A stretch of 24,000 nt of DNA from Rhizobiales bacterium NRL2 (GCA_001664005.1 CP016093.1:3377031-3401030), one strand, 5' to 3'; positions 6,463-24,000 are shown, counted from the stretch's first letter. Made by a program: numbers and translations. Notes: generated from the letters alone by a model not told the origin.

Positions 6463-6538
6463 TCGATGGCAGCGAAGGTGGTGTGCTTTAAGACTACCGA
6501 ATAGCCGGTAACGGACACGGCATAGGGAATAGCTCGTA

Positions 6539-8375: not shown

Positions 8376-8434
8376 GATCGCCTCCTGCGAAGGGGAACTT
8401 TCGCGCATTGGAGGCGAACAGCTGGCGCGAGACA

Positions 8435-8454: not shown

Positions 8455-8471
8455 TGACGAGGTGCCCCCGC

Positions 8472-9197: not shown

Positions 9198-9458
9198 CCG
9201 TCTTCCTTCCGATCGACGCGAATGGGGCCTTCCATTTCGGATCGTCTTGCCGTCGCCTGCCCAGGGCCCATACGCGAAATCCGTTGCAGGAATTCTATCG
9301 CTGGTGCGCTCGACGAAACAAGCAACGAACCAAAACTTGTGAGGACTGTTATTGGCCATACGCCTCGGAAACAACGGCCGATCTTCGGTTTCCTGCCCTC
9401 CTCCGGACGATGTCGGCATCGTCGGCCACCGTCGCCGGCGGTCACCGTGATCGTCGCT

Positions 9459-10379: not shown

Positions 10380-10580
10380 TGAACAGTTTCGGGGCTGTCG
10401 CTAAGTGGATGTCCGCCTTGGTTATGCTGCGGCCGGGATTGGCTGCTGCGTCGTGAGATATGCCTGATCGGGGGCCTGCCCGCCAAGCGATGATTGAGGT
10501 CTCCGGCCGTTGTAGAACGCCAGGTACCGGCTGATCGAGGCGCGGGCCTCCGGTACGTTGGCATAGGCGCGCAGTTGGCG
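10380..10580 (-). mobile_element. IS3-family (IS407-group-like) remnant: terminal inverted repeat plus the last ~50 codons of the transposase
   Basis: The minus strand encodes ...LRAYANVPEARASISRYLAFYNGRRPQSSLGGQAPDQAYLTTQQPIPAAA* (stop at 10422-10424), the conserved C-terminal end of IS3-family OrfB. The outer end TGAACAGTTTCGGGGCTGTCGCTAAGTGG starts with TG at 10380. Similarity is lost upstream of about 10580. No second end was found in the window. Confidence 0.6.
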
Positions 10581-10884: not shown

Positions 10885-11556
10885 TCATTGTCGGTCCCCC
10901 TCAACGGCCGGGCTGGTGAAAATGTCTTTGAGGCGGGGCATAAACCGGGGCACTCTCTCGGCGTAGCGTCGGTACACGTCACCCAATTCGGCTTCGACTT
11001 CCCGCTCTTCGCGCAGGGAAAGACGCCAGTACATGACAAGCAGAACGGGAAACATCGCCAGTGTGAGAATGGTCGGCCACTGGAACAGGAACCCAACCAG
11101 AATCAGGACGAAGCCGACATATTGAGGATGGCGAATGCGGGCGTAAGGCCCCGTGGTCGCGAGCGTTCCCGTCCGTTGTGCTTGGTAAAGGACACGCCAA
11201 GCGGCCGAGAGCAGGATGAACCCGCCGCCGATGAAGCCGAAACTCAGAATGTGGAAGGGCCCGAGGTGCGGGTTTGCCTTCCAGCCAAACAGCATTTCCA
11301 GGAGATGGCCGGAATCATGGGCAAGCCAGTCGACGCTTGGGTAGTTGGTCTGCAACCAGCCCGATAGGAAATATATGGTGAGCGGGAAGCCGTACATCTC
11401 AGTGAAAAGCGCGACCAGAAAGGCGCTGAAAGCACCGAATGAGCGCCAGTCCCGGCCAGTCTTCGGCTTAAAGAAGCTAAAGGCGAACAGGATGAAGATC
11501 GCCGAGTTGATCACCACCAATAACCAGAGACCGTAGGCTGGAACTTCGTTGCTCAT
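10885..11556 (-). CDS. Isoprenylcysteine carboxyl methyltransferase (ICMT/PEMT)-family membrane methyltransferase
   Basis: ORF 10885-11700 trimmed to ATG 11556, which overlaps the upstream stop as ATGA. It is a multi-TM protein ending ...TTGPYARIRHPQYVGFVLILVGFLFQWPT...REEREVEAELGDVYRRYAERVPRFMP, the ICMT-family signature region. Confidence 0.85.
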   Translation of the reverse strand: MSNEVPAYGLWLLVVINSAIFILFAFSFFKPKTGRDWRSFGAFSAFLVALFTEMYGFPLTIYFLSGWLQTNYPSVDWLAHDSGHLLEMLFGWKANPHLGPFHILSFGFIGGGFILLSAAWRVLYQAQRTGTLATTGPYARIRHPQYVGFVLILVGFLFQWPTILTLAMFPVLLVMYWRLSLREEREVEAELGDVYRRYAERVPRFMPRLKDIFTSPAVEGDRQ

Positions 11557-11795
11557 CTGTCGTCCTCCCGCGGTTCGTCGCGGTGCGATCCGTGATCGCC
11601 CCCGTGGCTGCCATGCATGAAGAAATGCATGCCCACGCAGAGTCCGAGAATGAGGAGGAGCGGCAGATAGCCCAGAATATGCGCGGCATGCTCTTCCCAC
11701 AGGAAGTAACCCGCCACTGCCAGGAATCCGAGCAACACCATGCCGGAACGGGAGAAAATGAAGCTCCGGAAGCCGCTGGTTTCATGCTGCGCCAT
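11553..11795 (-). CDS. DUF2933-type small membrane protein with a C-terminal His cluster
   Basis: MAQHETSGFRSFIFSRSGMVLLGFLAVAGYFLWEEHAAHILGYLPLLLILGLCVGMHFFMHGSHGGDHGSHRDE. Two TM segments and an MHxFMHGxHGG motif. RBS AAGAGGTGA. Confidence 0.8.
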   Translation of the reverse strand: MAQHETSGFRSFIFSRSGMVLLGFLAVAGYFLWEEHAAHILGYLPLLLILGLCVGMHFFMHGSHGGDHGSHRDEPREDDR

Positions 11796-11843
11796 GTCGC
11801 GTCACCTCTTCCGACCCTCGTCGTTTCCGAAATACGGTCGAGG

Positions 11844-12920
11844 TCATCCGCCCGCGCCCTGAACCATCTGATGGCCTTTGCCGCCGATCTGGATCTCTCC
11901 GCGAATCCTGAGATCCCGCTGATCGATCACCCAAATTTTCGGCTCATCGGCGCTGGAGACGTAGAGCTTGCCCGTCCCGCGAACGACGGCGAGGTGGTAC
12001 GGGGCGGGAGCCAAGGGAACACTGCGCTGGGCGCCGGTAGCGAGATCGATGGCAACCACCTTGTCGCCACCAAGGACCGCGATGAAGAGCGTGCCGCCAT
12101 CATCGGACAGGTCGATCCCGTGGAGGGCCGTTTCGAGGCGAATCGTCTTCACAACCGTTTGGTCGCCGACCTCAACGACGGAGACCGTGCCGTCGTCGAC
12201 GTTGTTGACGTAGAGAGTGACGCCATCTCTGGACAGAACGATGTGTTCAGGGCTGCCGCCGACAACGGTATTCGACCGGACGATCCACCGTGCCGTGTCG
12301 ATCTCGCTGACCGTGTCGTTGCCGGTGTTGCTGACGTAAAGGCGGTCACCGCCAGGAGCGAAGGCCGCGTAATTGGGTAGAGGCCCGGTGGCGACCGTCG
12401 CGACCACCTCATAGGAGCCGAGGTCGATGGCACTGATTGATCCGGCGTTGGGATGGGTGACGACGGCGAACCGGCCATCGTCACTGACCGCGACGTGGTG
12501 GACGGCGCCGGGTACATCGATGCGCCGGACCACGGAGCCGTCGGCCGTTCGAACGACCGAGACCGTGCTGAATTCCGCAACGGCGTTCCTGGCATCGGCG
12601 GACGCGGCGCCATGGTGCGCGGCATGCTCATCTTCGGATACGCCCGCCGGCTTCGCTGGCGCCTCGCCGCCTGATGCTCGCGTCTCGAAGCTTCCGGCTA
12701 GCAGGAACTGCCCATCGGGCGTCCCCGCGAGGCCATGAACTGCCGCCAAGCCGGTTATCGTATCGACGATTTCGTCCGGCGCGGCATCGACAGCGACAAT
12801 CTTGTTCTCTCCGCCGAGGGGCACATACACGAACGGCTCGGCAAGAGCCGCTTGCGCTCCCAACACCAGGATCATCAGTCCTGTCCAGGCGGCGACTCGG
12901 GGAATCGATATGGCGTTCAT
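11844..12920 (-). CDS. Secreted YncE/YVTN-type beta-propeller repeat protein
   Basis: Signal peptide MNAISIPRVAAWTGLMILVLGAQAALA. Repeated propeller blades are visible (VAVSDDGRFAVVTH, LYVSNTGNDTVSEID, LYVNNVDDGTVSVVE, LFIAVLGGDKVVAID, LYVSSADEPKIWVID). A His-rich insert EDEHAAHHG is present. Confidence 0.8.
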   Translation of the reverse strand: MNAISIPRVAAWTGLMILVLGAQAALAEPFVYVPLGGENKIVAVDAAPDEIVDTITGLAAVHGLAGTPDGQFLLAGSFETRASGGEAPAKPAGVSEDEHAAHHGAASADARNAVAEFSTVSVVRTADGSVVRRIDVPGAVHHVAVSDDGRFAVVTHPNAGSISAIDLGSYEVVATVATGPLPNYAAFAPGGDRLYVSNTGNDTVSEIDTARWIVRSNTVVGGSPEHIVLSRDGVTLYVNNVDDGTVSVVEVGDQTVVKTIRLETALHGIDLSDDGGTLFIAVLGGDKVVAIDLATGAQRSVPLAPAPYHLAVVRGTGKLYVSSADEPKIWVIDQRDLRIRGEIQIGGKGHQMVQGAGG

Positions 12921-12972
12921 AGATGGTCGTTCCTTTCCGTAAGGCGCATTGCCGCGATGGGTTGGACTCTTT

Positions 12973-15333
12973 CTAGATCTTGACCGAACGCAGCCGGAGA
13001 GCGTTGCCGACTACCGATACGGACGACAGACTCATCGCCGCGGCCGCGAATATCGGTGAGATCAAAATCCCGAAGTACGGGAAGAGGATCCCCGCCGCCA
13101 CCGGCACGCCCGCGGCGTTGTAGACCAAGGCGAAAAACAGGTTTTGCTTGATGTTGCGCATCGTCGCACGAGAGAGCTTCCTGGCCCGGACGATGCCGTT
13201 GAGATCGCCTTTGACCAGGGTAAAACCCGCGCTCTCGATCGCCACGTCGGCGCCGGTGCCCATGGCGATGCCGACATCGGCCTGGGCCAGTGCAGGTGCG
13301 TCGTTGACGCCATCGCCCGCCATCGCGACCTTTCGGCCTTCGTCTTGCAGCTCCTTGATGATGTGCGCCTTGTCTTCGGGCAACACGTCGGCACGGATCT
13401 CGTCGATCCCGAGTTTTCCAGCCACCGCCTTCGCGGTACGCTCGTTGTCGCCAGTCGCCATGACGATGCGGAAGCCTTGTTCGTGCAGCGCCTTCAGCGC
13501 GTCCGGCGTCGTCTCCTTGACCGGATCGGCGACCGACACGAGACCGGCGATTTCGGACCCGACGATGACGAACATCACCGTTTCGCCTTCGTCACGTCGA
13601 GCATTGGCGGTCTCGGAGAGCTTGCCGCCGTCGAGCCCCAGATCGGCGAGAAGCTTTGCGTTGCCGAGCGCCACTGATTTGCCGTCGACGATGCCTTTTA
13701 CCCCTTTGCCGGTGACGGCTTCGAATTCATTCGCGTTAGCCAGCGCAACATCGCGTTCTTCGGCCCCGGTGACGATGGCTTCGGCGAGTGGGTGCTCCGA
13801 GCCCCGCTCCAGGCTTGCGGCCAAGCGCAGCACGTCGTCCTCCTCATGCCCGGGTTGCGGCAAGACGGCGACGAGCTTCGGCTTGCCGACGGTCAGCGTC
13901 CCCGTCTTGTCGACGATCAGCGTGTCGACCTTGGCGAAGCGTTCCAGCGCCTCGGCGTTCTTGATCAGCACGCCGGCTTGTGCGCCTCGGCCCGTTGCCG
14001 TCATGATCGACATCGGCGTTGCCAGGCCCAGCGCGCACGGACAGGCGATGATCAAAACGGCGACTGCCGAGACCAGTCCATATGAGAGTGCCGGGGCAGG
14101 CCCCCAAAGAGACCATGCGATGAATGAGAGAATTGCAATGACGATCACGGCTGGTACGAACTTGCCCGCCACAGAGTCGGCAAGTTTCTGGATCGGGGCA
14201 CGGCTGCGCTGCGCGTTCGCGACCATCTCGACGATCTGGCTCAGCATGGTGTCGGAGCCGACGCGTTCGGCTTCGATCACGAGACTGCCCGTGCCGTTGA
14301 TTGTGGCGCCGGTTACCTTGTCGCCCTCGACTTTCTCGACCGGAACCGGTTCGCCGGAGATCATCGATTCATCGATCGACGAACGTCCCTCGACCACCAC
14401 GCCGTCGACGGGCACCTTGTCGCCCGGGCGGACGCGCAGCCGATCGCCGACCTCGACGTCCTCGAGCGGGATTTCCTCCTCGCTCCCGTCCTTGCGGATC
14501 ACCCGGGCGGTCTTGGCGGCCATATCCAAAAGGGCGCGAATCGCCGAGCCCGTTCGCTCGCGCGCGCCGAGCTCCATCACCTGGCCGAGCAGCACCAGCA
14601 CGACGATCACCGCGCCGGCTTCAAAATAGACCCCGACATGGCCCTCCGCATCGCGGAATCCGTCCGGGAAAATCTCCGGCACGAGCACGGCGACGACACT
14701 GAAGAGATAGGCCGCGCCGACGCCCATCCCGATGAGCGTGAACATGTTGAGACTGCGGTTGATCACCGACTTGACGCCACGCACGAAGAATGGCCAACCG
14801 GCCCAGAGAATGACCGGTGTCCCCAAAGCGAGTTCGATCCACAGCGTTACACGCTCGCCGAAGATGTCGCGGACGAAACCGAGCCCAACAAAGGGGCCCA
14901 TCGTCAGCACAAGAAGCGGAACCGTCAGCACGGCGCCGATCCAAAACCGGCGCTTGAAATCGACAAGCTCGGGATTCGGTCCGTCATCGGGGGCTGGAAC
15001 CCCCATAGGCTCCAGCGCCATGCCGCAGATCGGACATTCTCCCGGTTCGTCCCGCACGATCTCGGGATGCATCGGGCAGGTATATTTCGTGCCCTTAGGC
15101 GCTGTTTCGGCCTTGTGCTCGCCGGCGAGATAATGCTCCGGGTCGGCCGCGAACTTATCGTGGCACTTTTGAGAACAAAAGTGATAGGTCTCACCCTCGT
15201 ACTCTCGGCTCGGCTTGTCCTGATCCACCTGCACCGTCATTCCGCAAACCGGATCTCTGGCCGTCATAGCCTTGACCGAAGCTGTTGCACCGTCAGAGCG
15301 ATGGCTGTGATCGTGATCATCGTGCTTGTTCAT
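12973..15333 (-). CDS. Cu(I)/Ag(I)-translocating P1B-type ATPase with a His-rich, YHS and CPxCG N-terminus
   Basis: CPC motif ([13 protein letters not shown]), DKTGTLT phosphorylation site, GDGVNDAP, and YN ([12 protein letters not shown]) plus MxxSS ([10 protein letters not shown]) transmembrane signatures of Cu(I) pumps. The N-terminus reads HDDHDHSH, then DPVCGMTV...[12 protein letters not shown], then [22 protein letters not shown]. Confidence 0.95.
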
Positions 15334-15413
15334 TGGCTTGTTCCGGCTTTCCGGTTCGATTGACGATGTATGCTGCGGTCTTCCGCGACTCTGGCTTTTG
15401 TTGGACGACGGTT

Positions 15414-15749
15414 TCAGTCGGAGAGCAGACGCTTTCGTTCTTCGAACTCCTCCTTGTCAATCTCGCCGCGGGCAAAGCGTTCGTGAAGGATGTCGAGGGG
15501 CCCGTTCGTTCGTGATTGCGATCGGGCTACCCGTCCTGAATCGCCACCTAGCCAGCGGGCCGCGAGTATGATCGCGAGGATGATCCCGCCCCAGAAGACG
15601 ATCATCATGACGGAGCCAAAAATCATGTGTCCCCAGCCCCAGCCATAGTGCCAATAGTCGGATCGATCGGCCGGGGTTTGCGCAAGTGCCGGCATCGATA
15701 CCACCGCGGTGGGCAGCGCCAGGGCCAAATTCGTCAATTGTCTTCTCAT
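15414..15749 (-). CDS. SHOCT-domain membrane protein
   Basis: A signal or TM segment, then [36 protein letters not shown], then the C-terminal SHOCT motif [25 protein letters not shown]. It is the first gene upstream of the ATPase. Confidence 0.75.
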
Positions 15750-15960
15750 TTGACGCTCCTTTCGTGGTACATGGCCTGTCCAATCATCTCTTCGATGTGA
15801 AATGCGACTTCGGCGTACAAACCGTCACCGCTGTCGGTATTCGCGGAAACGTTCGCAGGATCTCTGTTCTCACATCTATAAGGACGGCGAGAGACGCTCA
15901 GCGTTACAGTGACGGGGATTCGAGGCAGTGATGGACTGAGGCGGCAGAGATCGTCTGAAG
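15746..15960 (-). pseudogene. Decayed fabI/SDR-like gene remnant abutting the SHOCT gene
   Basis: The minus-strand frame reads ...[38 protein letters not shown]. Compare the C-terminus of the intact FabI at 16389: ASDYTSAITGETLYVDAGFHIEGMVFH*. Its stop overlaps the SHOCT ATG as ATGA. Upstream similarity is weak and changes frame (QTISAASV vs NAISAGAV). Confidence 0.35.
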
Positions 15961-16173
15961 CTCTTTGGGAGCCTCGCCTGCCGTGCCTGAACAGGCGTAG
16001 AGCGAAGGCGGAACAGCGGCACTCGGCCCGAAATCGGCTGCCGATCGTCCATAGATCGGTCGTTCGAAACCCTACAAAATTGTGTTCCGGATACTCGTAA
16101 AGGTCCTCTGCAAGAGACGCATCGCTAAGCTTTCACGACGATCCGTTCTTCGTCTGACGTCACAGGTCTGCGG

Positions 16174-16389
16174 CTACGTATCCTTACCGGCCGATGGCTG
16201 CGAGAAATAGGCCAGTGAGGAGGAGTATCGTTCCGGCGCTGTGAGAAAGAGCTTGTGACAGCCCTCCGAGCAGAAAAAATACGCCCAGCCCTCACACTCC
16301 TCCTGGGCGACGGCCTTTTCGGGCGTCAGGCGCATGCCGCATACTGGGTCGGTTACCATTACGTCTTTTTCGGGTTCGAAGCCGGCCAT
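16174..16389 (-). CDS. YHS (TRASH-type) domain protein, 71 aa
   Basis: DPVCGMRLTPEKAVAQEECEGWAYFFCSEGCHKLFLTAPERY is the canonical YHS pattern (DPVCGM...Y.FCS..C...F...P..Y). Its start overlaps the fabI stop (TGATG). Confidence 0.85.
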   Translation of the reverse strand: MAGFEPEKDVMVTDPVCGMRLTPEKAVAQEECEGWAYFFCSEGCHKLFLTAPERYSSSLAYFSQPSAGKDT

Positions 16390-17171
16390 CAGTGAAACAC
16401 CATCCCTTCGATGTGAAAGCCCGCGTCGACGTAGAGCGTTTCCCCGGTGATGGCGCTCGTATAATCGCTCGCCAGCATAAGCGCCGTACGTCCCACCTCG
16501 CAGGCGTCCACCGTGCGCCGCAGCGGCGCCTTGCGGACGGTCTCATTCAATAGTTCGTCGAAATGCTCGATGCCCGAGGCCGCACGTGTCGCGACCGCCC
16601 CGGCCGAAATCGCGTTCACCCGGATCGCCTTGCCACCGTGTTCATGGGCCAGGTAGCGTACAGACGCTTCAAGGGCGGCCTTCACTGGCCCCATGACATT
16701 GTAATGATCGACCACTTTTTCTGCGCCGTAGTAGCTGAGCGTCGTCAAGCTGCCACCTTTGTCCATGAGCGGCTCGGCGAGCTTCGCCATACGGATGAAG
16801 GAGTGGCACGAGATAAGCATCGATTCAGCGAAGCCTTCTCCCGAACAATCGGTCAACCGGCCATGGAGATCTTCCTTACGGGCCCATGCGATCGCATGAA
16901 ACAGAAAATCCAATCGGCCCCATTTCTGCTCGATCTCCCCGAAGACGGCCTCCAATTGTCCCGGCTCGGCGACATTGCAGGGCAGGAAAAGTTGCGCGTC
17001 CACCTGTTGCGAAAGCGGCTCAACAAAGGGCTTGGCCTTGTCGTTCAGATAGGTGATGGCAAGATCGGCGCCGGCGTTCCCAAAATGCTGGGCCGCCGAC
17101 CAGGCCAAACTGTGTTCGTTGGCAATTCCCACCACCAACCCCTTCCGGCCTTTCATATCGATGAGTTCCAT
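16389..17171 (-). CDS. fabI: Enoyl-[acyl-carrier-protein] reductase (NADH), FabI family
   Basis: ORF 16389-17231 trimmed to ATG 17171 (AAAGGAG upstream). MELIDMKGRKGLVVGIANEHSLAW.... The Tyr-x6-Lys catalytic pair lies in HYNVMGPVKAALE. IRVNAISAGAVATRAASGI and ITGETLYVDAGFHI are also present. Confidence 0.9.
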   Translation of the reverse strand: MELIDMKGRKGLVVGIANEHSLAWSAAQHFGNAGADLAITYLNDKAKPFVEPLSQQVDAQLFLPCNVAEPGQLEAVFGEIEQKWGRLDFLFHAIAWARKEDLHGRLTDCSGEGFAESMLISCHSFIRMAKLAEPLMDKGGSLTTLSYYGAEKVVDHYNVMGPVKAALEASVRYLAHEHGGKAIRVNAISAGAVATRAASGIEHFDELLNETVRKAPLRRTVDACEVGRTALMLASDYTSAITGETLYVDAGFHIEGMVFH

Positions 17172-17282
17172 TTTTGCGCTTGCTCCTTTCTCCGGCCAGG
17201 CGGGCCAGGCGCGATCCGTCTCGCCGCGCACGATATTATTCGGGACCAGACATAGCTGCGGACGACAGGGTCACAGCCTGGG

Positions 17283-19067
17283 TCAGGGCATCAGCACATA
17301 GGTGCCGGGCGCTTCGCCCAGCCGCCGATAGCCCTTGCGCGCCGCCCCCAGGCCAGGGGGCTTAACGGGTTCACCCGAATGGTCGCTAAGCCACCCTAGC
17401 CAACAGGGCCACCATGAACCCTCATGGTGGGTGGCCCGCGCCTGCCAGGCGTCAGGGTCCAGGTAGGCCGCGAGATCATCGTGGGTGGCGATCTGGTGAC
17501 GACGCCGGGTGTTGCCAGGTGGGCTCACAATGCCGGCATTGTGGCCGCCATTGGATAGTACGAAGGTAACATCGGCATTGGTTTGGCTGTGGATCTTGTA
17601 AACCGACCGCCACGGCGCGACATGGTCCGAGAGCGTGCTGACCGCAAAAATCGGAATGCGGATGTCATGCAACGACACCGGGCGACCGTCGACGCGATAG
17701 CGTTCGTCCGCCAGATCATTGTCGAGGAACAGCTGCCGGAGATATTCGGAGTGCATCCTGGCAGGCATGCGCGTGGCGTCAGCATTCCACGCCATCAGGT
17801 CGAACATCGGTCGGCGCTCTCCCATGAGATAATTCTGAACCATGGCCGACCAGATGAGGTCGTTGGAGCGAAGCAGCTGGAACGTGCCGGCCATCTGCTT
17901 GGTATCGAGACAGCCCTGCTCGGCCATGATGTCCTCGAGAAAGCTGACCTGGGCCTCGTCAATGAACAGCATCAATTCGCCGGCTTCCGTGAAGTCCGTC
18001 TGCGCGGCGAAGAGGGTCATGGTTGCCAGCCGGTCGTCGCCATCGCGGACCATGGCCGCCGCAGCAATCGACAAGAGCGTTCCACCGAGGCAGTAGCCGA
18101 CGCCGTGGACGCGGCTTTCCGGCGCGATAGCTGACACCGCGTCGAGCGCGGCCATGACGCCCAGCCGGCGATAGTCCTCCATACCAAGGTCGCGATCTTC
18201 GACCGTCGGATTTTTCCAGGAGATCATGAAGACCGTGTGACCCTTCTCGACCAAGTATTTCACCAGCGAGTTCTCGGGGCTAAGGTCGAGGATATAGTAT
18301 TTCATGATCCAGGCAGGCACGATCAGGATAGGCTCGGGATGAACCTTATCCGTCGCCGGCATGTATTGGATCAGTTCGATCAATTCGTTACGGAAAATCA
18401 CTTGGCCCGGTGTAACCGCCAGGTTGTCGCCGACCGCGAACCGTTCCGTGCCGGCAGGTCGCCCCCCACTGACCGCGCGTTGCCAGTCTTCGAAGAAGTT
18501 CACCGCGCCGCGCACCAGATTTTGGCCCCCGGTATCGAGGGTCTCCTTCAGGACCTCGGGGTTGCTCGACGGAAAATTCGCAGGCGACATCATATCGAGC
18601 AACTGCCGGGCAACGAAGGAAACGACCTCTTCATGGTGCCTGGAGACGCCGGAGATGCCGGTTGTGGCGTTGTGCCACCATTGCTGGGTCAGGAGAAAAC
18701 CTTGATAGATCGCGTTATATGGCCATGCCTGCCACGGATCGCCGGCAAAGCGTTTGTCCTGCGGCAGGGGCTCGATGCAGGCCTCGCAATGAGGATCCGA
18801 GCAAGCCCGTGAACAGTATTCCAGATAGCGCGCCCATTTGCGGACGGCCTTCTGAACTAGTTCTATTTGCTTGTCGGGCGACATGACGAGATGCTGCGCC
18901 CAGTCCGTATACGCTTGAGCAAGCGCCACGGGTGACACACCGGCGGTGATCTGCCCGAGTGTCGCATGGAGAGGTTGATCCAGGGATAAACCCCTCCCCA
19001 ACGGTTCGTTGCGAGGCGTTGCCAGCGCGGTTTGCTCCGTTCGTACTTTCGTTGGATGGTGCCCCAT
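17283..19067 (-). CDS. phaC: Class I poly(R)-hydroxyalkanoate synthase
   Basis: 594 aa. Lipase-box with Cys nucleophile GVGYCLGGT, WNADATRMP (catalytic Asp region) and GGHNAGIV (His). The conserved PhaC N-domain is present (PDKQIELV...RFAGDPW). It starts 3 nt after the pta stop. Confidence 0.93.
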   Translation of the reverse strand: MGHHPTKVRTEQTALATPRNEPLGRGLSLDQPLHATLGQITAGVSPVALAQAYTDWAQHLVMSPDKQIELVQKAVRKWARYLEYCSRACSDPHCEACIEPLPQDKRFAGDPWQAWPYNAIYQGFLLTQQWWHNATTGISGVSRHHEEVVSFVARQLLDMMSPANFPSSNPEVLKETLDTGGQNLVRGAVNFFEDWQRAVSGGRPAGTERFAVGDNLAVTPGQVIFRNELIELIQYMPATDKVHPEPILIVPAWIMKYYILDLSPENSLVKYLVEKGHTVFMISWKNPTVEDRDLGMEDYRRLGVMAALDAVSAIAPESRVHGVGYCLGGTLLSIAAAAMVRDGDDRLATMTLFAAQTDFTEAGELMLFIDEAQVSFLEDIMAEQGCLDTKQMAGTFQLLRSNDLIWSAMVQNYLMGERRPMFDLMAWNADATRMPARMHSEYLRQLFLDNDLADERYRVDGRPVSLHDIRIPIFAVSTLSDHVAPWRSVYKIHSQTNADVTFVLSNGGHNAGIVSPPGNTRRRHQIATHDDLAAYLDPDAWQARATHHEGSWWPCWLGWLSDHSGEPVKPPGLGAARKGYRRLGEAPGTYVLMP

Positions 19068-19070
19068 GGT

Positions 19071-20093
19071 TCACGCTCCCATCGGACAGCACGCGGCTTC
19101 AGGTTGAGCCGCGCAATGAATGGCCGATTCCGATTCTCCTCGTTGCAACTGCTGCGACCGAGGCAGCGCAGATTGATGCATCAGGACGGCGAGCGCCAGC
19201 GCCGCCAACCGGGCGGCCGGCGGATCGGCGCGGGAGCTGAGCACCACCGGCGTGGCGAGGCCCATGACGACGCCCGCCGCCGTGGCGCCGGCCAGATATT
19301 CGAGATTCTTGGTCAAGATGTTGCCGGAAACGAGATCGGGGACCAGCAGGATATCGACATCTCCGGAGACCTCCGAGACGATGCCTTTCTCGCGGGCTGC
19401 GACGGCTGAGATGGCGTTGTCAAAGGCCATTGGGCCGTCGACGATCGCACCTGCAATCTGGCCCCGTTTGGCCATCAAAGCGAGACAGGCCGCGTCGAGG
19501 GTTGATGCAATGGCCGGATTGACCGTCTCGACTGCGGACAACACAGCTGCCTTCGGTGTTTCTATGCCAAGGAGCGTGAAAAGCGCGATGGCGTTCTCAA
19601 GAATCTGCGCTTTCGCGTTGAGGTCCGGCATGATGTTGATGGCCGCGTCCGTGATCGCGAGGAGCTTCGGATAGGCTGGAATGTCGACCATGAAGACGTG
19701 GCTGACGCGGCGACCTGGGAGTCTGAGGCCGCGGTCCGTGTCTAGCAGGGCCCGCATGAAGGCATCGGTGTGAATGTGACCCTTCATGACCGCGTCGGCA
19801 TCGCCGTTTCGGACGAGATCGACACCGGCGCGGGCCATATCGGGGTCGCTCTTTGCGGAGATGATCGCAGCCCGGTCGATCTCCACATTGGAGGAGGCTG
19901 CGCAGTCCAGAATCGCGTCGGGATCGCCGACGAGCCGGGGTACGATCAGGCCAAGCGCCACAGCTTCCTGAACCGTTTCGAGGACAAGGCCTTGATCGGC
20001 GGCGACCACGGCGACGCGGATTGGCGTGCGCTCCTTCGCACGTGCGACGAGATCCTCGAGAGTGGCGGGATGATCAACCATGGGCTCGCACAT
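19071..20093 (-). CDS. pta: Phosphate acetyl/butyryl-transferase family protein (Pta/Ptb-like, 340 aa, no MaoC or DRTGG domains)
   Basis: ...IRVAVVAADQGLVLETVQEAVALGLIVPRLVGDPDAI...DAVMKGHIHTDAFMRALL...HVFMVDIPAYPKLLAITDAAINI...PKAAVLSAVE...SGDVDILLVPDLVSGNILTKNLEYLAG shows the PTA_PTB family layout. An alternative start is at 20081. It overlaps the ackA stop. Confidence 0.85.
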   Translation of the reverse strand: MCEPMVDHPATLEDLVARAKERTPIRVAVVAADQGLVLETVQEAVALGLIVPRLVGDPDAILDCAASSNVEIDRAAIISAKSDPDMARAGVDLVRNGDADAVMKGHIHTDAFMRALLDTDRGLRLPGRRVSHVFMVDIPAYPKLLAITDAAINIMPDLNAKAQILENAIALFTLLGIETPKAAVLSAVETVNPAIASTLDAACLALMAKRGQIAGAIVDGPMAFDNAISAVAAREKGIVSEVSGDVDILLVPDLVSGNILTKNLEYLAGATAAGVVMGLATPVVLSSRADPPAARLAALALAVLMHQSALPRSQQLQRGESESAIHCAAQPEAACCPMGA

Positions 20094-21291
20094 TCTCCTT
20101 TCCGGATGCGCTCAGAATGTTTTGCGTGTGACACGCGATGACCAACTCCTCGTCAGTCTTGAAGGCTTCGATGAGCACACCGCTGTCATCGGTCGATATG
20201 AGGTGTTGTTGACCGGCGTTCCGCTCCGCGTCGAGCGTGAGACCGAGATAGTCAAGCCCCTCGCAGATGCTGGCGCGGATTTCGGGCGAGTTAGCGCCGA
20301 TACCGCCGGTGAAAATCAACCGATCGAGACCGCCGAGCGCGGCCGTCAGGCCAGCCAGGTGCCGGCGTGCATGGTGGCTGAAGAAATCGATCGCCTCCGC
20401 CGCCTCTGGAACGTCCCGCCGGGCCAGGAGATCGGCCATGTTGCGGCTCAAGCCGGACAGACCGAGCAGGCCCGATTCGGTGTAGAGCACCTGTTGAAGG
20501 GCGTCGGGAGTCATTTGCTTTTCGATCAGGAGGTGCAGGAGAACGCCGGGATCGAGATCGCCGGGACGCGTCCCCATGGGAAGGCCGGCAAGTGTACTGA
20601 AGCCCATGGTGGTCTCGACGCTGTGTCCGTTCCTGATCGCCGCCATCGACGCGCCGTTGCCGAGATGGGCAACAATGATTCGTTCCTCCGCAGCTGCGTC
20701 GCCGTCACGCCGGCGTACCTCGCCGATGACATACTCATAAGACAGGCCGTGAAAACCGTAGCGCCGGATACCCTCTTGCTCGAAACGGCGCGGCAAGCCG
20801 GTCAAGCGCGCCACGCGTGACAAGCCATGGTGAAACGCGGTGTCGAAGCAGGCGACCTGCGGGAGATCGGGCCGTTGTCGTCGGACCGCTGTGATGCCGG
20901 CCAGGTTATGGGGCAGATGGAGGGGCGCGAGCGGGACCAGTTGCTTCAGCCGGACCTCGAGCGCGGGCGTGACCACACGCGAACAATCACAGCCCTCTCC
21001 GCCATGTACCAACCGGTGGCCAACGGCAACGGGTGTCGCTTGCGTGTCGCGATCCTCGGCCCAGTTCAGAAGCAGGTCGAGGGCCGCGTCATGGTCGGGA
21101 ATTGCCCGCGTTTCATCGACCAGTGCCGTCCTGTCCGCTGCCCTCACAAGGAAACGTCCTTCGTCGAAGCCAATGCGTTCCAGAGAACCCGACCAGGTTC
21201 GCTGGGGCTCGGCGGGAGCCGCGTCGAACAGCGCGAACTTGACGCTGGAGGATCCGCTATTGATGACCAGGATCGCGCCATCAACGGCCAT
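20074..21291 (-). CDS. ackA: Acetate/propionate (short-chain acyl) kinase
   Basis: ORF 20074-21312 trimmed to ATG 21291. MAVDGAILVINSGSSSVKFALF..., VGHRLVHGG, CFDTAFHH, RRYGFHGLSYEY, AHLGNGASM, FTGGIGANS. It overlaps the upstream stop by 11 nt. Confidence 0.9.
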   Translation of the reverse strand: MAVDGAILVINSGSSSVKFALFDAAPAEPQRTWSGSLERIGFDEGRFLVRAADRTALVDETRAIPDHDAALDLLLNWAEDRDTQATPVAVGHRLVHGGEGCDCSRVVTPALEVRLKQLVPLAPLHLPHNLAGITAVRRQRPDLPQVACFDTAFHHGLSRVARLTGLPRRFEQEGIRRYGFHGLSYEYVIGEVRRRDGDAAAEERIIVAHLGNGASMAAIRNGHSVETTMGFSTLAGLPMGTRPGDLDPGVLLHLLIEKQMTPDALQQVLYTESGLLGLSGLSRNMADLLARRDVPEAAEAIDFFSHHARRHLAGLTAALGGLDRLIFTGGIGANSPEIRASICEGLDYLGLTLDAERNAGQQHLISTDDSGVLIEAFKTDEELVIACHTQNILSASGKENVRAHG

Positions 21292-23104
21292 CGTTCTTCG
21301 CCTCGCCTTCATTCCCTACTGTTCCCGCCGCGGATGTCTCCTGGCCGTAAAGCTGCCCGAACGCCTGTTCGTAGCCGGCGTCGCGCCACTCGCGGACCTC
21401 CTCGATCGCCCCGGAAAATTCGGCGAAAAGCTCTCGTTCCCTTTCCAGCAAAGGATGATCCTCGGGCAGCGGTTTCCGCGTCTTGGCAATACCATCTGCC
21501 AGAGCCGCGACACCGCGCATCCATGGGTTGAACGACTCGGAAAACAAGTAACGGCTCGTTCGCATCGGATGCAGCCACTTCAACGACTCCGCGGTCCATG
21601 GATTGCTCGCCATCTGAACCCACGGACTGACGAAGCTCCGGTAGAACGCCTCGCCCGCCTCGGAAACAGCCCGCACTTGTTCGAATGCCTGGCTTTGCTC
21701 CGGAAACTTCAGATCCTCGACCCGCCGCTCGTCAAACCGCACGGTGAATTGCGGCTTGTGGCAGTCGGGGTCGCCGCTCGGGTTGTCGATCTTCATCTCG
21801 TAGAGGCCCGGGGCGAGGGCTTCGATCTCATCGAGGTTTTCGAGAATGGCGCGATGTTCAAGGCGGGCGACCTTGGCCGACACGAAGATGCCGAGATGGC
21901 CCACATGCGGATTGGTCAGATAGACGATCCGTTGACCCGCCTTCTTCAGATCGGCCGTATCCTCATATACGGTCGGAATCCAGCCCAGAGCCTGATGCGG
22001 CGGCGTGATGTTGTCTCCGTAGGAGGCAAAGATGACCAACGGATTGCGGATGCGGCGCAAATCGGCGATGCAGCCGTCGCAGATGCGCATGATGCCCTGT
22101 TCCAGCTTGTTGCCGATGAACAGGTTTTCGACGATCGCCAGTATTTCTTCGCGGCTGAGGAAATAGAACCCGTTCCACCAGCGCTCGAACTCGAGGAAGC
22201 GCTCGCTCTCGGTATCGACCTTGTGGAACAGACCGGCGTATTTCTCCCAAATAGCCTTTTCCGGCTTCAGGTTCTCGAAATTCAGGGCCAGCCACGCGCC
22301 ATCGAAGCGGCCGTTGCCGAGATCGGCCGTCAAATGCGTGAGCCAGGCGCCGCCGAGCAGTCCTCCGGTCACCCGCATCGGATTGACGCCGGCCTCGCCT
22401 GACCAATAGGACAGCGGCGAGCCGTTCAGCACAGCAGGGCCGACCAGACCCTCACAGTCGGCCGAGAGCAGAGTCATCGCCCAACCGGCCTGACAGTTGC
22501 CGTAAAGGACAGGCGGCGTGCCGGAATGGCGTCCGGCGACCTCCTCCACGAAGCGCCTGAGTGCATGTAACACGTCGGCCAGTGTCTGGCCGGGCGATGG
22601 CTCCGGGAAAAAGATCACGAAATATGTTGGATGCCCCTCGTGGAGCGCCATGCCGACTTCGGAATCGTGCTTGAACCCGCCGATCCCCGGCCCGTGCCCG
22701 GCGCGCGGATCGACCACGATGACCGGCGGCTTGTCGGAATCGACGCAGTCGTCCCAGCAGTCATCGCCGACTTCCGTAATCCGCAGGAGCGCATAGTTCG
22801 CGGGAGGCTCGAAGCGCCGTGCGTCGAGGATCGTCTCGTATTTGAAGTCGAGCAACGGCGGCAAACCGGCGCGTTCATGCTCGAGCATATTGTCGGCGCG
22901 TTGTCTGAGCGTGTCCCAGAAAAGGATCGTCCGCTGCCAGAGGTCGACCTGGTAGTCGACGAGATCCTGGCCCGGCAGTCGAGCGTCCGAAGCATCCCCC
23001 ACACGCTTCTGACGCCGGGCATCCGCCTGGCTTACCAGTTTAAGTGCGGGTGCCCGTTTGTCGCCGGCATCGGTTGTGGCTTTTTGCCTCTTTGCCGTCG
23101 TCAT
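21281..23104 (-). CDS. DUF3141-family alpha/beta-hydrolase-fold protein (uncharacterised; sometimes annotated as PHA-synthetase-like)
   Basis: ORF 21281-23305 trimmed to ATG 23104 (GGGAGG upstream, ATGA overlap with the upstream stop). 607 aa. DLWQRTILFWDTLRQRADNMLEHERAGLPPLLDFKYE..., VDPRAGHGPGIGGFK, a nucleophile-elbow-like LYGNCQAGWAM, and ...YGDNITPPHQALGWI. The family name is recalled, not searched. Confidence 0.8.
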   Translation of the reverse strand: MTTAKRQKATTDAGDKRAPALKLVSQADARRQKRVGDASDARLPGQDLVDYQVDLWQRTILFWDTLRQRADNMLEHERAGLPPLLDFKYETILDARRFEPPANYALLRITEVGDDCWDDCVDSDKPPVIVVDPRAGHGPGIGGFKHDSEVGMALHEGHPTYFVIFFPEPSPGQTLADVLHALRRFVEEVAGRHSGTPPVLYGNCQAGWAMTLLSADCEGLVGPAVLNGSPLSYWSGEAGVNPMRVTGGLLGGAWLTHLTADLGNGRFDGAWLALNFENLKPEKAIWEKYAGLFHKVDTESERFLEFERWWNGFYFLSREEILAIVENLFIGNKLEQGIMRICDGCIADLRRIRNPLVIFASYGDNITPPHQALGWIPTVYEDTADLKKAGQRIVYLTNPHVGHLGIFVSAKVARLEHRAILENLDEIEALAPGLYEMKIDNPSGDPDCHKPQFTVRFDERRVEDLKFPEQSQAFEQVRAVSEAGEAFYRSFVSPWVQMASNPWTAESLKWLHPMRTSRYLFSESFNPWMRGVAALADGIAKTRKPLPEDHPLLERERELFAEFSGAIEEVREWRDAGYEQAFGQLYGQETSAAGTVGNEGEAKNDGR

Positions 23105-23439
23105 GGCCGGCCTCCCCGGCCACTGTGCGCGGCAAAGAAATTGTAAAGCGGCGCGAAGACCAGTGCTACATACCAGCCATAGGCGAAGCTCTCGGCCAGG
23201 CCGAGGAAAAAGCTCTGCCAGCTCAGCCAAGTGAAGCCAGGAAGGAGCCGGAACCAGCTTTGATACATCGCCTGGCCGGGAAACAAAAGGTCGAAGCCGA
23301 CGCAAAGAGCGAAGGTGACGGCCAGGAAGAGGCCTAGGCTCAAGCCGAGCGCCATCACGGGTATTCTTGAAGCAGACTGAACCGGCAGGGGCGTCCCCGC
23401 GCGCGGCGGCGTCCTCGAAGAGATATTGAGATCAGACAT
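23101..23439 (-). CDS. Small two-TM membrane protein (resembles DUF5676-type proteins of metal-resistance loci; name from memory)
   Basis: ATG 23439 (GGAGG upstream) within ORF 23101-23718. MSDLNISS...IPVMALGLSLGLFLAVTFALCVGFDLLFPGQAMYQSWFRLLPGFTWLSWQSFFLGLAESFAYGWYVALVFAPLYNFF. It overlaps the upstream stop by 8 nt. Confidence 0.65.
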   Translation of the reverse strand: MSDLNISSRTPPRAGTPLPVQSASRIPVMALGLSLGLFLAVTFALCVGFDLLFPGQAMYQSWFRLLPGFTWLSWQSFFLGLAESFAYGWYVALVFAPLYNFFAAHSGRGGRP

Positions 23440-23791
23440 GGCGGTCCTCCAACTGGGGCGTCGGCGTCTCGGTCTTGGCACCGGGTCCGACATATTGCTC
23501 GGGCGCAGCCTCAAAGCGCTCCCGGCATTCCCGCGAGCAAAAATAATAAACATTGCCGTCATGGACGCTCGGCTTGGCCTTGTCGGTACTGACGGTCTTG
23601 CCGCAGACGGGATCGACGTCCTTGGTTGGGGGAATCCACCGCAACTCCTCGGCATTCTTTTGCCGGCTGTGGTTCGCATCGCCGTGCTTGGCCTTGCCGT
23701 GCCCATGTCCCATGACATGGGCGCCGCAGCCGAAGCGCATCATCACGAAGATGATCACCGCCCAGATCAGGAAGTAGAAAAGCGCGTTCAT
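23432..23791 (-). CDS. Membrane-anchored YHS-domain protein with a His-rich linker
   Basis: N-terminal TM MNALFYFLIWAVIIFVMMRFGCGAHVMGHGHGKAKHGD (DUF2933-like motif), then DPVCGKTVSTDKAKPSVHDGNVYYFCSRECRERFEAAPEQY (YHS). Confidence 0.8.
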   Translation of the reverse strand: MNALFYFLIWAVIIFVMMRFGCGAHVMGHGHGKAKHGDANHSRQKNAEELRWIPPTKDVDPVCGKTVSTDKAKPSVHDGNVYYFCSRECRERFEAAPEQYVGPGAKTETPTPQLEDRHV

Positions 23792-23806
23792 GAACCCTGC
23801 CCGCGA

Positions 23807-24000
23807 CTACTTTTTCGCTGCGCTTGTCTTCGAGGCTGCGGTGCCGTCGTTCTCCGACCGCTTCACGGCAGCGCTCTCGTCGTCCTGGCCCGCCGCCGCT
23901 CGGCTCGCCTCGTGCACCAGCCCGGCGCAGCATTTGGACGTGATCTCGGCAAGCTCCCCAACATGGCTGGCGAGCGCCCCGAAGAGATCGCGATAGGCCT
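23807..24000 (-). CDS. 3' end of an unidentified gene (start beyond the window) with an Ala/Lys-rich tail; possibly phasin-like, unproven
   Basis: The minus-strand frame is open to the window edge: ...AYRDLFGALASHVGELAEITSKCCAGLVHEASRAAAGQDDESAAVKRSENDGTAASKTSAAKK* (TAG at 23807-23809). It ends 15 nt upstream of the YHS/TM gene on the same strand. Confidence 0.35.
   Translation of the reverse strand, partial: AYRDLFGALASHVGELAEITSKCCAGLVHEASRAAAGQDDESAAVKRSENDGTAASKTSAAKK

Follow-up and report, generated by a model that had tools for sequence, protein, structure and literature searches.

A polyhydroxybutyrate and acyl-phosphate operon with a DUF3141 gene on a mobile metal-resistance island of Rhizobiales bacterium NRL2, and its predicted sigma-factor regulon

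A stretch of 24,000 nucleotides (nt) from Rhizobiales bacterium NRL2 (GCA_001664005.1, CP016093.1:3377031-3401030; hereinafter the window, with positions counted from its first letter) carries on its minus strand a closely packed array of genes in which enzymes of polyhydroxyalkanoate (PHA) synthesis and acyl-phosphate metabolism stand between small YHS-domain proteins, next to a copper pump. A first-pass annotation of this DNA had read eight translationally coupled genes between 23791 and 16174. Direct reading of the sequence finds these genes and their junctions exactly as described there, and Pfam and NCBIfam profiles support every one of its family assignments (Table 1). As for the eight-gene operon itself, the coupling stands and the extent does not, the first gene being that of a phasin, of which the window holds the 3′ end only, and the promoter lying past the window. 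The operon comprises at least nine genes, in the order phasin, YHS/transmembrane (TM) protein, DUF5676, DUF3141, ackA, ptb-like pta, class I phaC, fabI and YHS, the phasin stop codon lying 16 nt before the first YHS start, and it sits on a mobile metal-resistance island.

Table 1. Coordinates of the operon, the predicted promoter site and the surrounding island genes in the window (aa, amino acids; ECF, extracytoplasmic function).
Feature	Position	Strand	Basis or remark
Phasin gene, 3′ end only (translation ends ...TSAAKK-stop)	23808-24000	-	start beyond the window; Pfam Phasin_2 on the full gene in L173/L004
YHS protein (119 aa), one N-terminal TM helix, His-rich linker	23432-23791	-	Pfam YHS 1.8e-12
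DUF5676 membrane protein (112 aa), two TM helices	23101-23439	-	Pfam DUF5676 1e-10
DUF3141 protein (607 aa)	21281-23104	-	Pfam DUF3141 PF11339, 685 bits
Acetate/propionate-family kinase AckA (405 aa)	20074-21291	-	Pfam Acetate_kinase 362 bits; TIGR00016 347 bits (cut-off 293)
Short Ptb-like phosphate acyltransferase Pta (340 aa), PTA_PTB	19071-20093	-	NF006045 374 bits (cut-off 282)
Class I-type PHA synthase PhaC (594 aa)	17283-19067	-	Pfam PhaC_N, PHBC_N, Abhydrolase_1
Spacer, 111 nt	17172-17282	-	ends AGGAG-N11-ATG; sole loose joint of the operon
FabI-type NADH enoyl reductase (260 aa)	16389-17171	-	NF005717 406 bits (cut-off 337)
Small stand-alone YHS protein (71 aa)	16174-16389	-	Pfam YHS 5e-14; start overlaps fabI stop
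Predicted ECF-type site GTAACG-N14-CCGTCC	15882-15907	-	one mismatch; 132 nt upstream of SHOCT start codon
SHOCT-domain membrane protein (111 aa)	15414-15749	-	Pfam SHOCT 3e-9
P1B-type Cu(I)-translocating ATPase, N-terminal YHS + HMBD	12973-15333	-	TIGR01511 592 bits (cut-off 397); Pfam YHS, HMBD
YncE/cytochrome-D1-like beta-propeller (358 aa)	11844-12920	-	Pfam YNCE, Lactonase
DUF2933 small membrane protein (80 aa)	11553-11795	-	gene call + Pfam PF11666 on L173 21310-21552
ICMT/PEMT-family methyltransferase, CzcN-like	10885-11556	-	Pfam PEMT, ICMT
AbiEii nucleotidyltransferase toxin (type IV toxin-antitoxin)	9462-10400	-	
LuxI-type autoinducer synthase and LuxR-type regulator	7746-8471 and 8475-9458	-	LuxR-type: Autoind_bind + GerE
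Two RovC-type DNA-binding-domain open reading frames (ORFs)	6533-6802 and 6817-7440	+ and -	
CopA multicopper oxidase, CopB and two cupredoxin (plastocyanin/azurin-like) genes in a row	1956-5912	+	opposite strand to the operon
ArdC-like anti-restriction N-terminal domain	3-728	-	

The sequence reading places an 8-nt overlap between the YHS/TM and DUF5676 genes (ATGTCTGA, 23432-23439), a 4-nt overlap between DUF5676 and DUF3141 (ATGA, 23101-23104) and an 11-nt overlap between DUF3141 and ackA (21281-21291). AckA and pta overlap by 20 or 8 nt at 20074-20093, depending on the choice of start ATG, pta and phaC are separated by 3 nt (19068-19070), and fabI runs into the small YHS gene through TGATG (16387-16391). 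The 111-nt gap between phaC and fabI has a good AGGAG ribosome-binding site at its end. For comparison we used loci anchored in two ways: 80 species-representative genomes with a DUF3141 protein of at least 69% identity (L009-L088; the denominators 55, 71 and 51 below are subsets of these) and 80 metagenome loci with a Pta fused to a MaoC hydratase (MaoC::Pta; L093-L172), 35 of which have adequate flanks. The 8-nt YHS/DUF5676 overlap is kept in 27 of 42 loci, the 4-nt DUF5676/DUF3141 overlap in 12, an AckA/Pta overlap of 4 to 29 nt in 29 of 29, and the 1-nt FabI/YHS overlap in 7 of 11, while the Pta/PhaC spacing ranges from -25 to +18 nt and the PhaC-FabI joint is loose in all 16 related loci (57-1467 nt). 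The arrangement is more than chance would give because the same overlap geometry recurs in related loci; it is selected, not accidental. Between positions 12500 and 24000 a promoter scan found no sigma-70-like promoter, and terminator-like matches number two against 9.6 expected by chance, one inside the ATPase gene and one on the opposite strand within phaC, neither being at an operon junction. An Rfam scan of the whole window returned no matches, and the spacer before fabI holds neither a promoter-like nor an ECF-motif match.

The DNA past the right edge was recovered by an exact look-up of the DUF3141 protein, which the sequence collection lists in 187 of its blocks. It yielded an ENA metagenome contig (L173) that is 100.000% identical to the window over 11281-24000 and reaches 9.1 kb further, window position w corresponding to L173 position 33105 - w. 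The closest public genome, found in a GTDB scan with a DUF3141 alignment, is contig15 of Thalassospira profundimaris WP0211, with 97.8% nucleotide identity over 11297-24000; a near-identity DNA search among plasmids gave only partial matches of 72-79%, and led to Halomonas KO116, Paracoccus and Burkholderia thailandensis. On L173 the full phasin has 148 aa and matches Pfam Phasin_2, with 26 bits against TIGR01841 (under its 30-bit cut-off), and the 64-aa fragment inside the window has no Pfam match by itself. On the same strand, 5′ of the phasin gene, lie the genes for an ECF sigma factor, an APC-family permease and a two-pore K+ channel, and still further 5′, about 3.4-5 kb upstream, phaB and a BktB-like thiolase (L173 3970-4692 and 4744-5931), so that the order of this unit is phaB-bktB-K+ channel-APC permease-sigma. 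PhaB is a short-chain dehydrogenase/reductase (SDR) scoring 357 bits with TIGR01829, the acetoacetyl-CoA reductase model (cut-off 302), and the thiolase is nearest to BktB, both as scored on the ~98% identical copy in L009. The island thus has the full gene set for polyhydroxybutyrate (PHB) synthesis, namely synthase, thiolase, reductase and phasin. The initial view that this is not a classical phaCAB pathway, for want of thiolase and reductase, is an artefact of the window's edge, since both genes lie just past it, on the same strand and behind the same predicted promoter motif.

That motif came to light in six related loci (L011, L012, L014, L017, L023, L053), where the element (C)TGTAACG-N14-CCGTCT(ATCT) stands directly after the sigma gene, 93-136 nt upstream of the phasin or first YHS gene, and is conserved also where the sigma coding sequence does not reach it. 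Its shape is typical of an ECF promoter, with 'AAC' at -35, 'CGTC' at -10 and a spacing of ~16 nt. The core GTAACG-N14-CCGTCT occurs three times on the coding strand of L173/L009, against ~0.1 expected, before phaB, the phasin gene and the SHOCT gene. On L173 an exact match lies 95 nt upstream of the phasin gene, ~350 nt past the window's right end, and a one-mismatch site 156 nt upstream of phaB. The site before the SHOCT gene (15882-15907) is the sole match in the window at up to one mismatch with N14 (0.05 expected), and in L004 and L023 the consensus stands at that position without a mismatch. A weaker variant, 17-spaced, is oriented towards the divergent genes for an unknown protein, a cation diffusion facilitator (CDF) transporter and an EamA protein. 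The motif is also found upstream of SHOCT or ATPase genes in L014, L015, L023 and L053. Across the 80 DUF3141-anchored loci its sites precede phasin, YHS, DUF3141, SHOCT and ATPase genes, at 55 per Mb in the 11 loci with the sigma gene versus 5 per Mb in the other 69 (14 versus 2 exact matches). One predicted ECF-type motif is accordingly shared by the phaB-bktB-...-sigma unit, the phasin operon, and the unit of SHOCT, Cu-ATPase, beta-propeller, DUF2933 and ICMT genes. Three loci without YHS/DUF5676 directly upstream of DUF3141 (L012 1980, L035 9787, L036 926) have a one-mismatch copy 42-54 nt before the DUF3141 start, where this predicted promoter type seems to act on DUF3141 directly.

Anr/FNR control of the operon, by analogy with the low-oxygen-activated lxa locus of Burkholderia, was considered and rejected as unsupported. 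In 42 loci the DNA before the first YHS gene has no TTGA-N6-TCAA box, and no TGA-N6-TCA motif occurs upstream of the phasin, fabI, SHOCT or ATPase genes; the one FNR-like site, an 8/10 match upstream of phaB (ATGAACGTGATCAA), is within chance expectation (~0.5 by our own estimate).

The sigma gene has the APC permease and phasin genes as neighbours, with no anti-sigma gene adjoining, and lies in metal-related surroundings (Cu-ATPase, CDF transporter, CopA/CopB and cupredoxins). Its product has SigZ as the best NCBIfam match (91 bits, under the cut-off). The linker between sigma-2 and sigma-4.2 reads FVCVCLYKLLP on L173, with the CxC present in 11 of 11 orthologues, and sigma-4.2 is followed by a C-terminal extension of ~33 residues (ETCRTCPIHGYLDCECDYAGHVRAEIGEGPSEL, beginning ETCRTCPIHGYLDCECDYAGH) with four Cys and two His, in which C-x2-C-P-x-H-G-x3-C-x-C is likewise kept in 11 of 11. 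The ECF44 group is defined by a strictly conserved CxC between sigma-2 and sigma-4.2, a Cys-rich C-terminal extension of 21-50 residues, the lack of an anti-sigma factor and a metal neighbourhood (PMC4937300, PMC6851896), and the composition of the extension is reviewed as variable, with His and Asp among its possible residues (PMC4937300/PMC6851896). On these sequence features it is plausible that the sigma factor is a CorE-like (ECF44) member. With CorE and CorE2 of Myxococcus xanthus (PMC3107203, PMC4937300, PMC6851896) it shares the linker CxC, a Cys-rich extension and the lack of an adjoining anti-sigma gene, and its predicted regulon includes a P1B-ATPase, with a CDF efflux gene behind the weaker divergent site. 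Unlike in those systems, the extension has four Cys plus two His, the predicted regulon adds a full PHB/acyl-phosphate set, unreported for ECF44, and a response to metal is a prediction.

P1B-1 ATPases of the CopA type are recognized, in the Arguello classification, by CPC in TM6, YN in TM7 and MxxSS in TM8, along with metal-binding domains at the N-terminus (here YHS and HMBD). In the ATPase encoded here CPC (TM6), YN (TM7) and MSLSS (AMSLSSVSV, TM8) are readable, giving it the P1B-1 CopA-type signature. The 424 nt between the small YHS gene and the SHOCT gene (15750-16173) are non-coding and hold the predicted ECF-type site; the ~270 nt upstream of that site contain short ORFs only, with no Rfam match. 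The bracketing of the enzymes by two YHS genes next to a copper pump, which the first-pass annotation had left unexplained, is real and can now be placed: YHS genes and pump belong to a conserved backbone of this DUF3141 clade, and in this island they share with the PHB genes one predicted ECF-type motif. The probable task of the small YHS proteins is to serve the YHS-bearing ATPase, or else to deliver or sense metal. The clade sits mainly in copper/metal islands, with YHS and DUF5676 genes usually directly upstream of DUF3141, an association that appears to be new: in the literature searched we found no link of DUF3141 to metals, no relevant paper that brings copper islands and these genes together, and no mention of them in the copper transcriptome of Cupriavidus metallidurans.

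All four enzymes of the cassette can be assigned with some precision. The catalytic motifs of PhaC are intact (GYCLGG synthase box, SDHVAPW aspartate, GGHNAG histidine), its TIGR01838 score of 563 bits being under the 623-bit cut-off. Pta scores 280-293 bits against phosphate butyryltransferase models versus 63-76 bits against classical Pta models, and 344 bits against NF008852 (under its 413-bit cut-off). The profile it matches best above cut-off, NF006045, describes a bifunctional enoyl-CoA hydratase/phosphate acetyltransferase; as the alignment covers positions 157-460 of 467 only, the protein is without the MaoC hydratase domain. Fused MaoC::Pta forms are seen in Paracoccus (L003), Roseomonas (L078) and the 80 metagenome loci, and the dehydratase step that had been noted as missing from the window is indeed encoded nowhere here. 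FabI belongs to the subfamily NF005717, at more than 100 bits over any other FabI model, with its YxxxxxxK active-site stretch (SYYGAEKVVDHYNVMGPVKAAL) intact, and the FabIs of the Sinorhizobium meliloti, Ralstonia solanacearum and Paracoccus clusters fall to the same model with 436-451 bits. The reductase slot is variable: in an otherwise syntenic cluster on a plasmid of Halomonas sp. KO116 (L002 941-1723) the gene before the small YHS gene encodes a 3-ketoacyl reductase, an SDR that we rejected as a FabI, its model NF006072 being FabG-like. AckA scores ~270 bits against solved acetate and propionate kinases. Of the residues that we take to line the acetate pocket (V93, L122, F179 and P232 in the numbering of the Methanosarcina thermophila acetate kinase), the first three are conserved, and the P232-equivalent is Thr (MGFSTLAGLPMGTR); every cluster-linked AckA, those of S. 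meliloti and R. solanacearum among them, has Thr or Ala at this position, against Pro in the solved acetate and propionate kinases. Judged by sequence, these residues say nothing decisive on a preference for C2 or C4 substrates.

The DUF3141 protein is conserved at 70-83% identity across Alpha-, Beta- and Gammaproteobacteria, with the invariant motifs GNCQAG(W), SYGDNITPP and HVGHLG and Cys204-Asp364-His400/403 as candidate catalytic residues. The earlier suggestion that the operon encodes two Cys-type alpha/beta-fold proteins is supported by the PhaC box GYCLGG, the invariant GNCQAG of DUF3141 and an hhalign comparison of DUF3141 with the window's own PhaC, in which the Cys and Asp motifs fall in register, at a statistically weak E = 0.0055. 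A DUF3141 profile found no match among the Protein Data Bank (PDB) sequences. Its AlphaFold model is of moderate quality (pLDDT 65.7), and the top Foldseek matches of that model are PHA synthases (9knj at E = 1.5e-6, with 5xav and 5t6o in a similar range). We conclude that DUF3141 is a PhaC-like, Cys-type alpha/beta-fold protein, the catalytic role being putative. A possible precedent is PhbX of Pseudomonas extremaustralis, a granule-bound protein encoded in a phbF-phbP-phbX cluster that does not complement a synthase mutant (PMC4041789). PhbX is presumably a DUF3141 protein by analogy, since phbF-phbP-phbX matches the phaR-phaP-DUF3141 sets of Pseudomonas islands (bioRxiv 10.1101/2025.03.12.642780). 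Two other settings of the gene were seen. In an 80%-identical relative (L008 1726-6022 and 9675-11821), DUF5676-DUF3141 occurs without ackA, pta, phaC or fabI, near genes for PPK2, a PhoU-like protein, a PHO4 transporter and CYTH/CHAD proteins, a neighbourhood that recalls the PhoB control of the S. meliloti operon and polyphosphate metabolism. On plasmids p1 of B. thailandensis (L001) and pBVIE02 of Burkholderia vietnamiensis (L090), a methionine adenosyltransferase gene directly adjoins DUF3141, with ICMT-family methyltransferases, a beta-propeller and a P-type ATPase nearby and, in G4, also a gene labelled 'PHB depolymerase domain'; these neighbours may point to an S-adenosylmethionine-dependent step in the island.

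Gene order is conserved well beyond close relatives. The four enzymes occur together in 17 of 55 DUF3141-anchored loci (AckA and Pta in 28 each, FabI in 29, PhaC in 19), and all eight genes in 8 of 51, in several alphaproteobacterial orders; the loci with all eight include those of Algihabitans, Kiloniellaceae, Methyloceanibacter, Oricola and Hyphomicrobiaceae. Within 10 kb of DUF3141, 45 of 55 loci have a P1B-ATPase; the beta-propeller and DUF2933 are present in 34 each, and the small YHS protein in 13, always just upstream of SHOCT/ATPase. Upstream of DUF3141, YHS/TM is found in 43 of 71 loci and DUF5676 in 50. None of the four enzymes is present, beside the ATPase all the same, in 19 of 55, which belong to Comamonadaceae and Sneathiella, and on one Legionella and two Burkholderia plasmids DUF3141 stands amid Cu-ATPase, multicopper oxidase, RND, DUF2933 and ICMT genes. 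The build of these loci is thus modular, with a backbone [YHS/TM-DUF5676-DUF3141] ... [YHS-SHOCT-ATPase-propeller-DUF2933-ICMT] and an optional cassette [ackA-pta-phaC-fabI] between its halves. A variant of the locus itself (L174, NCBI GCA_002722295.1) is 99.6% identical to window 16221-24000 and carries an insertion sequence (IS) with an rve transposase at L174 16716-18063, which truncates the small YHS gene to 57 aa; lspA, an HMA protein gene and a MerR regulator gene replace the SHOCT/ATPase half and phaB through fabI are intact. That this IS replaces the ATPase half while the PHB half stays is evidence from nature for two separable modules.

The MaoC::Pta-anchored loci give the enzyme side of the same picture: of the 35 with adequate flanks, 29 have AckA, 15 FabI, 15 PhaC, 11 both FabI and PhaC, and three a P1B-ATPase. 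The best available argument for one pathway of hydratase, enoyl reductase, phosphotransacylase and kinase is of the Rosetta-stone kind, because the MaoC::Pta fusion adjoins the cluster-specific FabI and AckA; the pathway would lead from (R)-3-hydroxyacyl-CoA through enoyl-CoA, acyl-CoA and acyl-phosphate to acid and ATP. The enzyme block is an evolutionarily coherent module in many proteobacteria. The two sets are near-complementary, Pta being fused to MaoC in 1 of 28 Pta-bearing DUF3141 loci and DUF3141 being present in 3 of 80 MaoC::Pta loci, which may reflect functional substitution or simply lineage sampling.

Several known systems resemble the operon in part. The order DUF3141-pta-ackA-fabI occurs in S. 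meliloti and on the R. solanacearum megaplasmid, in homologous clusters with DUF3141 as the first gene. According to PMC8231600 and PMC5789663, the S. meliloti cluster is the orfA-pta-ackA-fabI operon of Summers 1999, which they give as co-transcribed, phosphate-stress-inducible and PhoB-controlled. Common to these clusters and ours are DUF3141, a short Ptb-like Pta (NF008852/NF006045), an acetate/propionate kinase, the NF005717 FabI and tight packing. However, DUF3141 there is ~44% identical and 130-150 aa longer, the protein encoded here falling in a separate metal-island clade; the order there is pta-ackA rather than ackA-pta; phaC, phasin, YHS, DUF5676 and metal genes are lacking; and control by PhoB and phosphate stress takes the place of the candidate ECF-type promoter. 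Calling the module uncharacterised, as was done initially, was therefore an overstatement, given that operon and the catalogued phaC-pta-ack-fabI clusters (PMC8231600; bioRxiv 10.1101/2025.03.12.642780).

In Burkholderia, group D clusters have the form phaC-(phaJ::pta)-ackA-fabI, with and without phaB (PMC8231600), and the lxa locus of Burkholderia cenocepacia holds ackA (BCAM0293), phaB (0296), phaC (0297), pta/ptb (0298) and a cation ATPase (0318), these being induced 15- to 224-fold at low oxygen and deletion of the locus cutting anoxic survival (PMC3721108). The first-pass remark that lxa contains a similar set is roughly right: ackA, phaB, phaC and pta/ptb are listed there, fabI is not (PMC3721108). 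With group D and lxa the operon shares a class I-type PhaC, Ptb-like Pta, AckA and FabI, with phaB sometimes near, and with lxa also a P-type ATPase and horizontal acquisition. Unlike here, the Burkholderia Pta is fused to an (R)-hydratase, and DUF3141, YHS and DUF5676 are not reported. Lxa further has an Anr-like TGA-N6-TCA motif and many universal stress protein (USP) genes, neither of which was found here; no lxa hallmark (USP, alpha-crystallin, nitroreductase, class II ribonucleotide reductase) is among the Pfam assignments of the window and the 9 kb beyond. The islands of Pseudomonas aeruginosa with a class I.3 PhaC, whose clusters are known by description, hold phaC, phaP, DUF3141, eutD/pta, ackA, fabI, phbB and paaJ (bioRxiv 10.1101/2025.03.12.642780), essentially the same inventory, again on a mobile element; they differ in having phaR and EmrA/RbbA/YadH efflux genes, and YHS, DUF5676, Cu-ATPase and an ECF sigma factor are not reported there.

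Comparison with phaCAB/phaP of the Cupriavidus necator type shows a class I-type synthase with Cys-Asp-His, a beta-ketothiolase, an acetoacetyl-CoA reductase and a phasin in both; here, unlike there, the genes are spread over two transcription units, with DUF3141, ackA, pta, fabI and the genes of metal-binding proteins in between, we found no phaR, and PhaC is under the TIGR01838 cut-off. The clostridial ptb-buk branch leads from acetoacetyl-CoA through 3-hydroxybutyryl-CoA, crotonyl-CoA, butyryl-CoA and butyryl-phosphate to butyrate and ATP. The chemistry proposed below would be the same as in that branch with Ter/FabI-type enoyl-CoA reduction, with an (R)-specific PhaB route, an SDR-type FabI in place of Bcd/Etf and an AckA-family kinase in place of Buk; unlike the clostridial set, no dehydratase is encoded, and the host is an aerobe. 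The gene combination as such is already known, and it is the embedding in a metal island, the link of the DUF3141 clade with the P1B-ATPase and the candidate CorE-like regulon that appear new.

The reading we prefer, and hold with roughly even confidence as a whole, is that metal export and an acetyl-CoA overflow network are induced together by one sigma factor, which metal or redox conditions activate. Activation of the sigma factor, most likely by a metal or thiol-redox signal, would switch on both. BktB/PhaA and PhaB would convert acetyl-CoA to (R)-3-hydroxyacyl-CoA at the expense of NAD(P)H, and PhaC would polymerize the latter onto phasin-coated granules, a storage form and redox sink. 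Pta and AckA would take acetyl-CoA, and probably C3-C4 acyl-CoA, through acyl-phosphate to acid and ATP, and FabI, by NADH-dependent reduction of enoyl-CoA to saturated acyl-CoA, would supply Pta/AckA and be a second redox sink. The source of the enoyl-CoA would be a hydratase such as the one fused to Pta in relatives, which is not encoded here. DUF3141 might act at the granule as a transacylase or thiolytic depolymerase between the polymer and CoA pools, possibly tethered to the membrane by the two small membrane proteins with which it is translated. The biochemistry, a PHB redox sink combined with flow from acyl-CoA through acyl-phosphate to ATP, is inferred. As a speculation, a network that needs no iron-sulphur (Fe-S) enzyme would suit copper stress. 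A bolder version would place the operon, as its metabolic branch, in a regulon for copper (or Cd/Zn, or thiol-redox) stress under a CorE-like sigma factor, an Fe-S-independent bypass supplying PHB and substrate-level ATP while copper-poisoned Fe-S enzymes and respiration are down, with DUF3141 as a new Cys-dependent granule enzyme (thiolytic depolymerase or transacylase) that perhaps replaces PhaC plus a MaoC front end and perhaps acts at the membrane with YHS/DUF5676; this has, in our estimate, a rather small chance of being right.

A number of observations weigh against a metal-switched overflow network. The sigma extension has four Cys and two His versus six Cys in CorE and CorE2; a redox signal rather than a metal could be what activates the factor. 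Of 71 related loci only 11 were found to contain the sigma gene; others have a two-component system or MerR-type gene upstream, so that the clade is not regulated in one way. The homologous S. meliloti operon answers to PhoB and phosphate stress, not to metal (PMC8231600, PMC5789663). No dehydratase is encoded in the island, and the MaoC fusion occurs in just one of the 28 Pta-bearing loci of the clade. TM-scores between the DUF3141 model and PhaC are only 0.3-0.5, with generic alpha/beta hydrolases nearly as good and the model itself mediocre (pLDDT 65.7). The primary role of DUF3141 may, moreover, be unrelated to PHB, because 19 of 55 loci hold it by the ATPase without any of the four enzymes.

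The first-pass annotation had offered a self-contained, non-classical polyester-to-ATP module for fermentative survival, running from PHA or 3-hydroxyacyl-CoA through enoyl-CoA, acyl-CoA and acyl-phosphate to ATP and switched by low oxygen as in lxa. The enzymology suits such a route, in that FabI favours the reductive direction, Pta is Ptb-like and MaoC::Pta fusions adjoin FabI and AckA, and lxa, with its ackA, phaB, phaC, pta/ptb and P-type ATPase, is a precedent induced 15- to 224-fold by low oxygen and contributing to anoxic survival (PMC3721108). We nonetheless regard it as unlikely: the thiolase, reductase and phasin genes lie just outside the window, no Anr/FNR box was found in five promoter regions or before the first YHS gene of 42 loci, the island lacks USPs and the other lxa hallmark genes, and the adjoining regulator is an ECF44-like sigma factor. 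The carbon might instead run the other way, AckA/Pta activating external acetate or short-chain acids that PhaA/PhaB/PhaC store as PHA, with phasin and DUF3141 as granule proteins and FabI as a side activity. The complete PHB synthesis set with phasin in one predicted regulon, the APC permease and K+ channel in the phaB-bktB transcription unit, and the view of acetate as a feed for PHA synthesis, put forward by the authors of a Burkholderia review as well as of the lxa paper (PMC8231600, PMC3721108), are all in keeping with this anabolic scheme. It gives FabI no role, though an NF005717 FabI accompanies this Pta/AckA pair across three proteobacterial classes, leaves the (R)-hydratase::Pta fusion unexplained, and sits badly with S. 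meliloti and Ralstonia, which retain DUF3141-pta-ackA-fabI without phaC, so that we think it rather improbable.

On a third account the ackA-pta-phaC-fabI cassette would have come to lie between DUF3141 and the Cu-ATPase genes of a mobile island by chance, the metal genes and the PHB genes being co-transferred with no link in function or regulation. The modularity of the loci speaks for this, with the backbone lacking the cassette in 19 of 55, an ATPase near MaoC::Pta clusters in only 3 of 35, S. meliloti-type clusters without metal genes, and the IS in L174 that replaces the ATPase half and leaves the PHB half. Yet a single contig has the same predicted motif before phaB, phasin and SHOCT/ATPase, and L023 repeats this, the YHS genes are start/stop-overlapped at both ends of the enzyme block in a conserved geometry, and the sigma gene is embedded in the phaB operon. 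It is the shared motif and the translational coupling of the YHS genes to both block ends that argue most strongly against hitch-hiking, to which we give a slim chance. A phosphate-stress or acetyl-phosphate operon of the S. meliloti kind, in which PhoB would govern the DUF3141-pta-ackA-fabI core for the sake of phosphate economy or acetyl-phosphate signalling, draws on the co-transcribed, phosphate-stress-inducible and PhoB-controlled homologue (PMC8231600, PMC5789663), and on the DUF5676-DUF3141 genes of L008 beside PPK2, PhoU, PHO4 and CHAD/CYTH genes. With DUF3141 only ~44% identical to the S. meliloti protein and in a different, metal-island clade, a candidate promoter of ECF type, ackA before pta, and phaC and phasin added, we give this last account hardly any credence.

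Sets of the DUF3141-pta-ackA-fabI and phaC-pta-ackA-fabI kinds have been on record since 1999, from rhizobia, Ralstonia, Burkholderia lxa/group D and Pseudomonas islands. What this locus adds, on the sigma-controlled overflow reading, is a testable handle, that is, a compact predicted regulon with a recognizable promoter and a candidate metal-sensing sigma factor, in which PHB metabolism and substrate-level phosphorylation would be joined to the export of copper on a mobile element. Should this link prove functional, islands of metal resistance would be shown to carry, beyond pumps and oxidases, a module for metabolic survival, and adding metal would offer a condition for assays of DUF3141, the cluster-specific FabI and the Ptb-like Pta; otherwise the locus is one more member of a known cluster family.

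The remainder of the window belongs to the same island. The AbiEii toxin, the ArdC-like domain and the two RovC-type ORFs are hallmarks of mobile elements, and therefore support an origin of the whole region from an integrative and conjugative element or a plasmid. The row of CopA, CopB and cupredoxin genes on the plus strand is the island's periplasmic copper-handling arm. Between it and the ATPase block lie the LuxI- and LuxR-type genes, in a stretch of 70% GC with long spurious ORFs on the opposite strand; the island thus has its own quorum-sensing pair.

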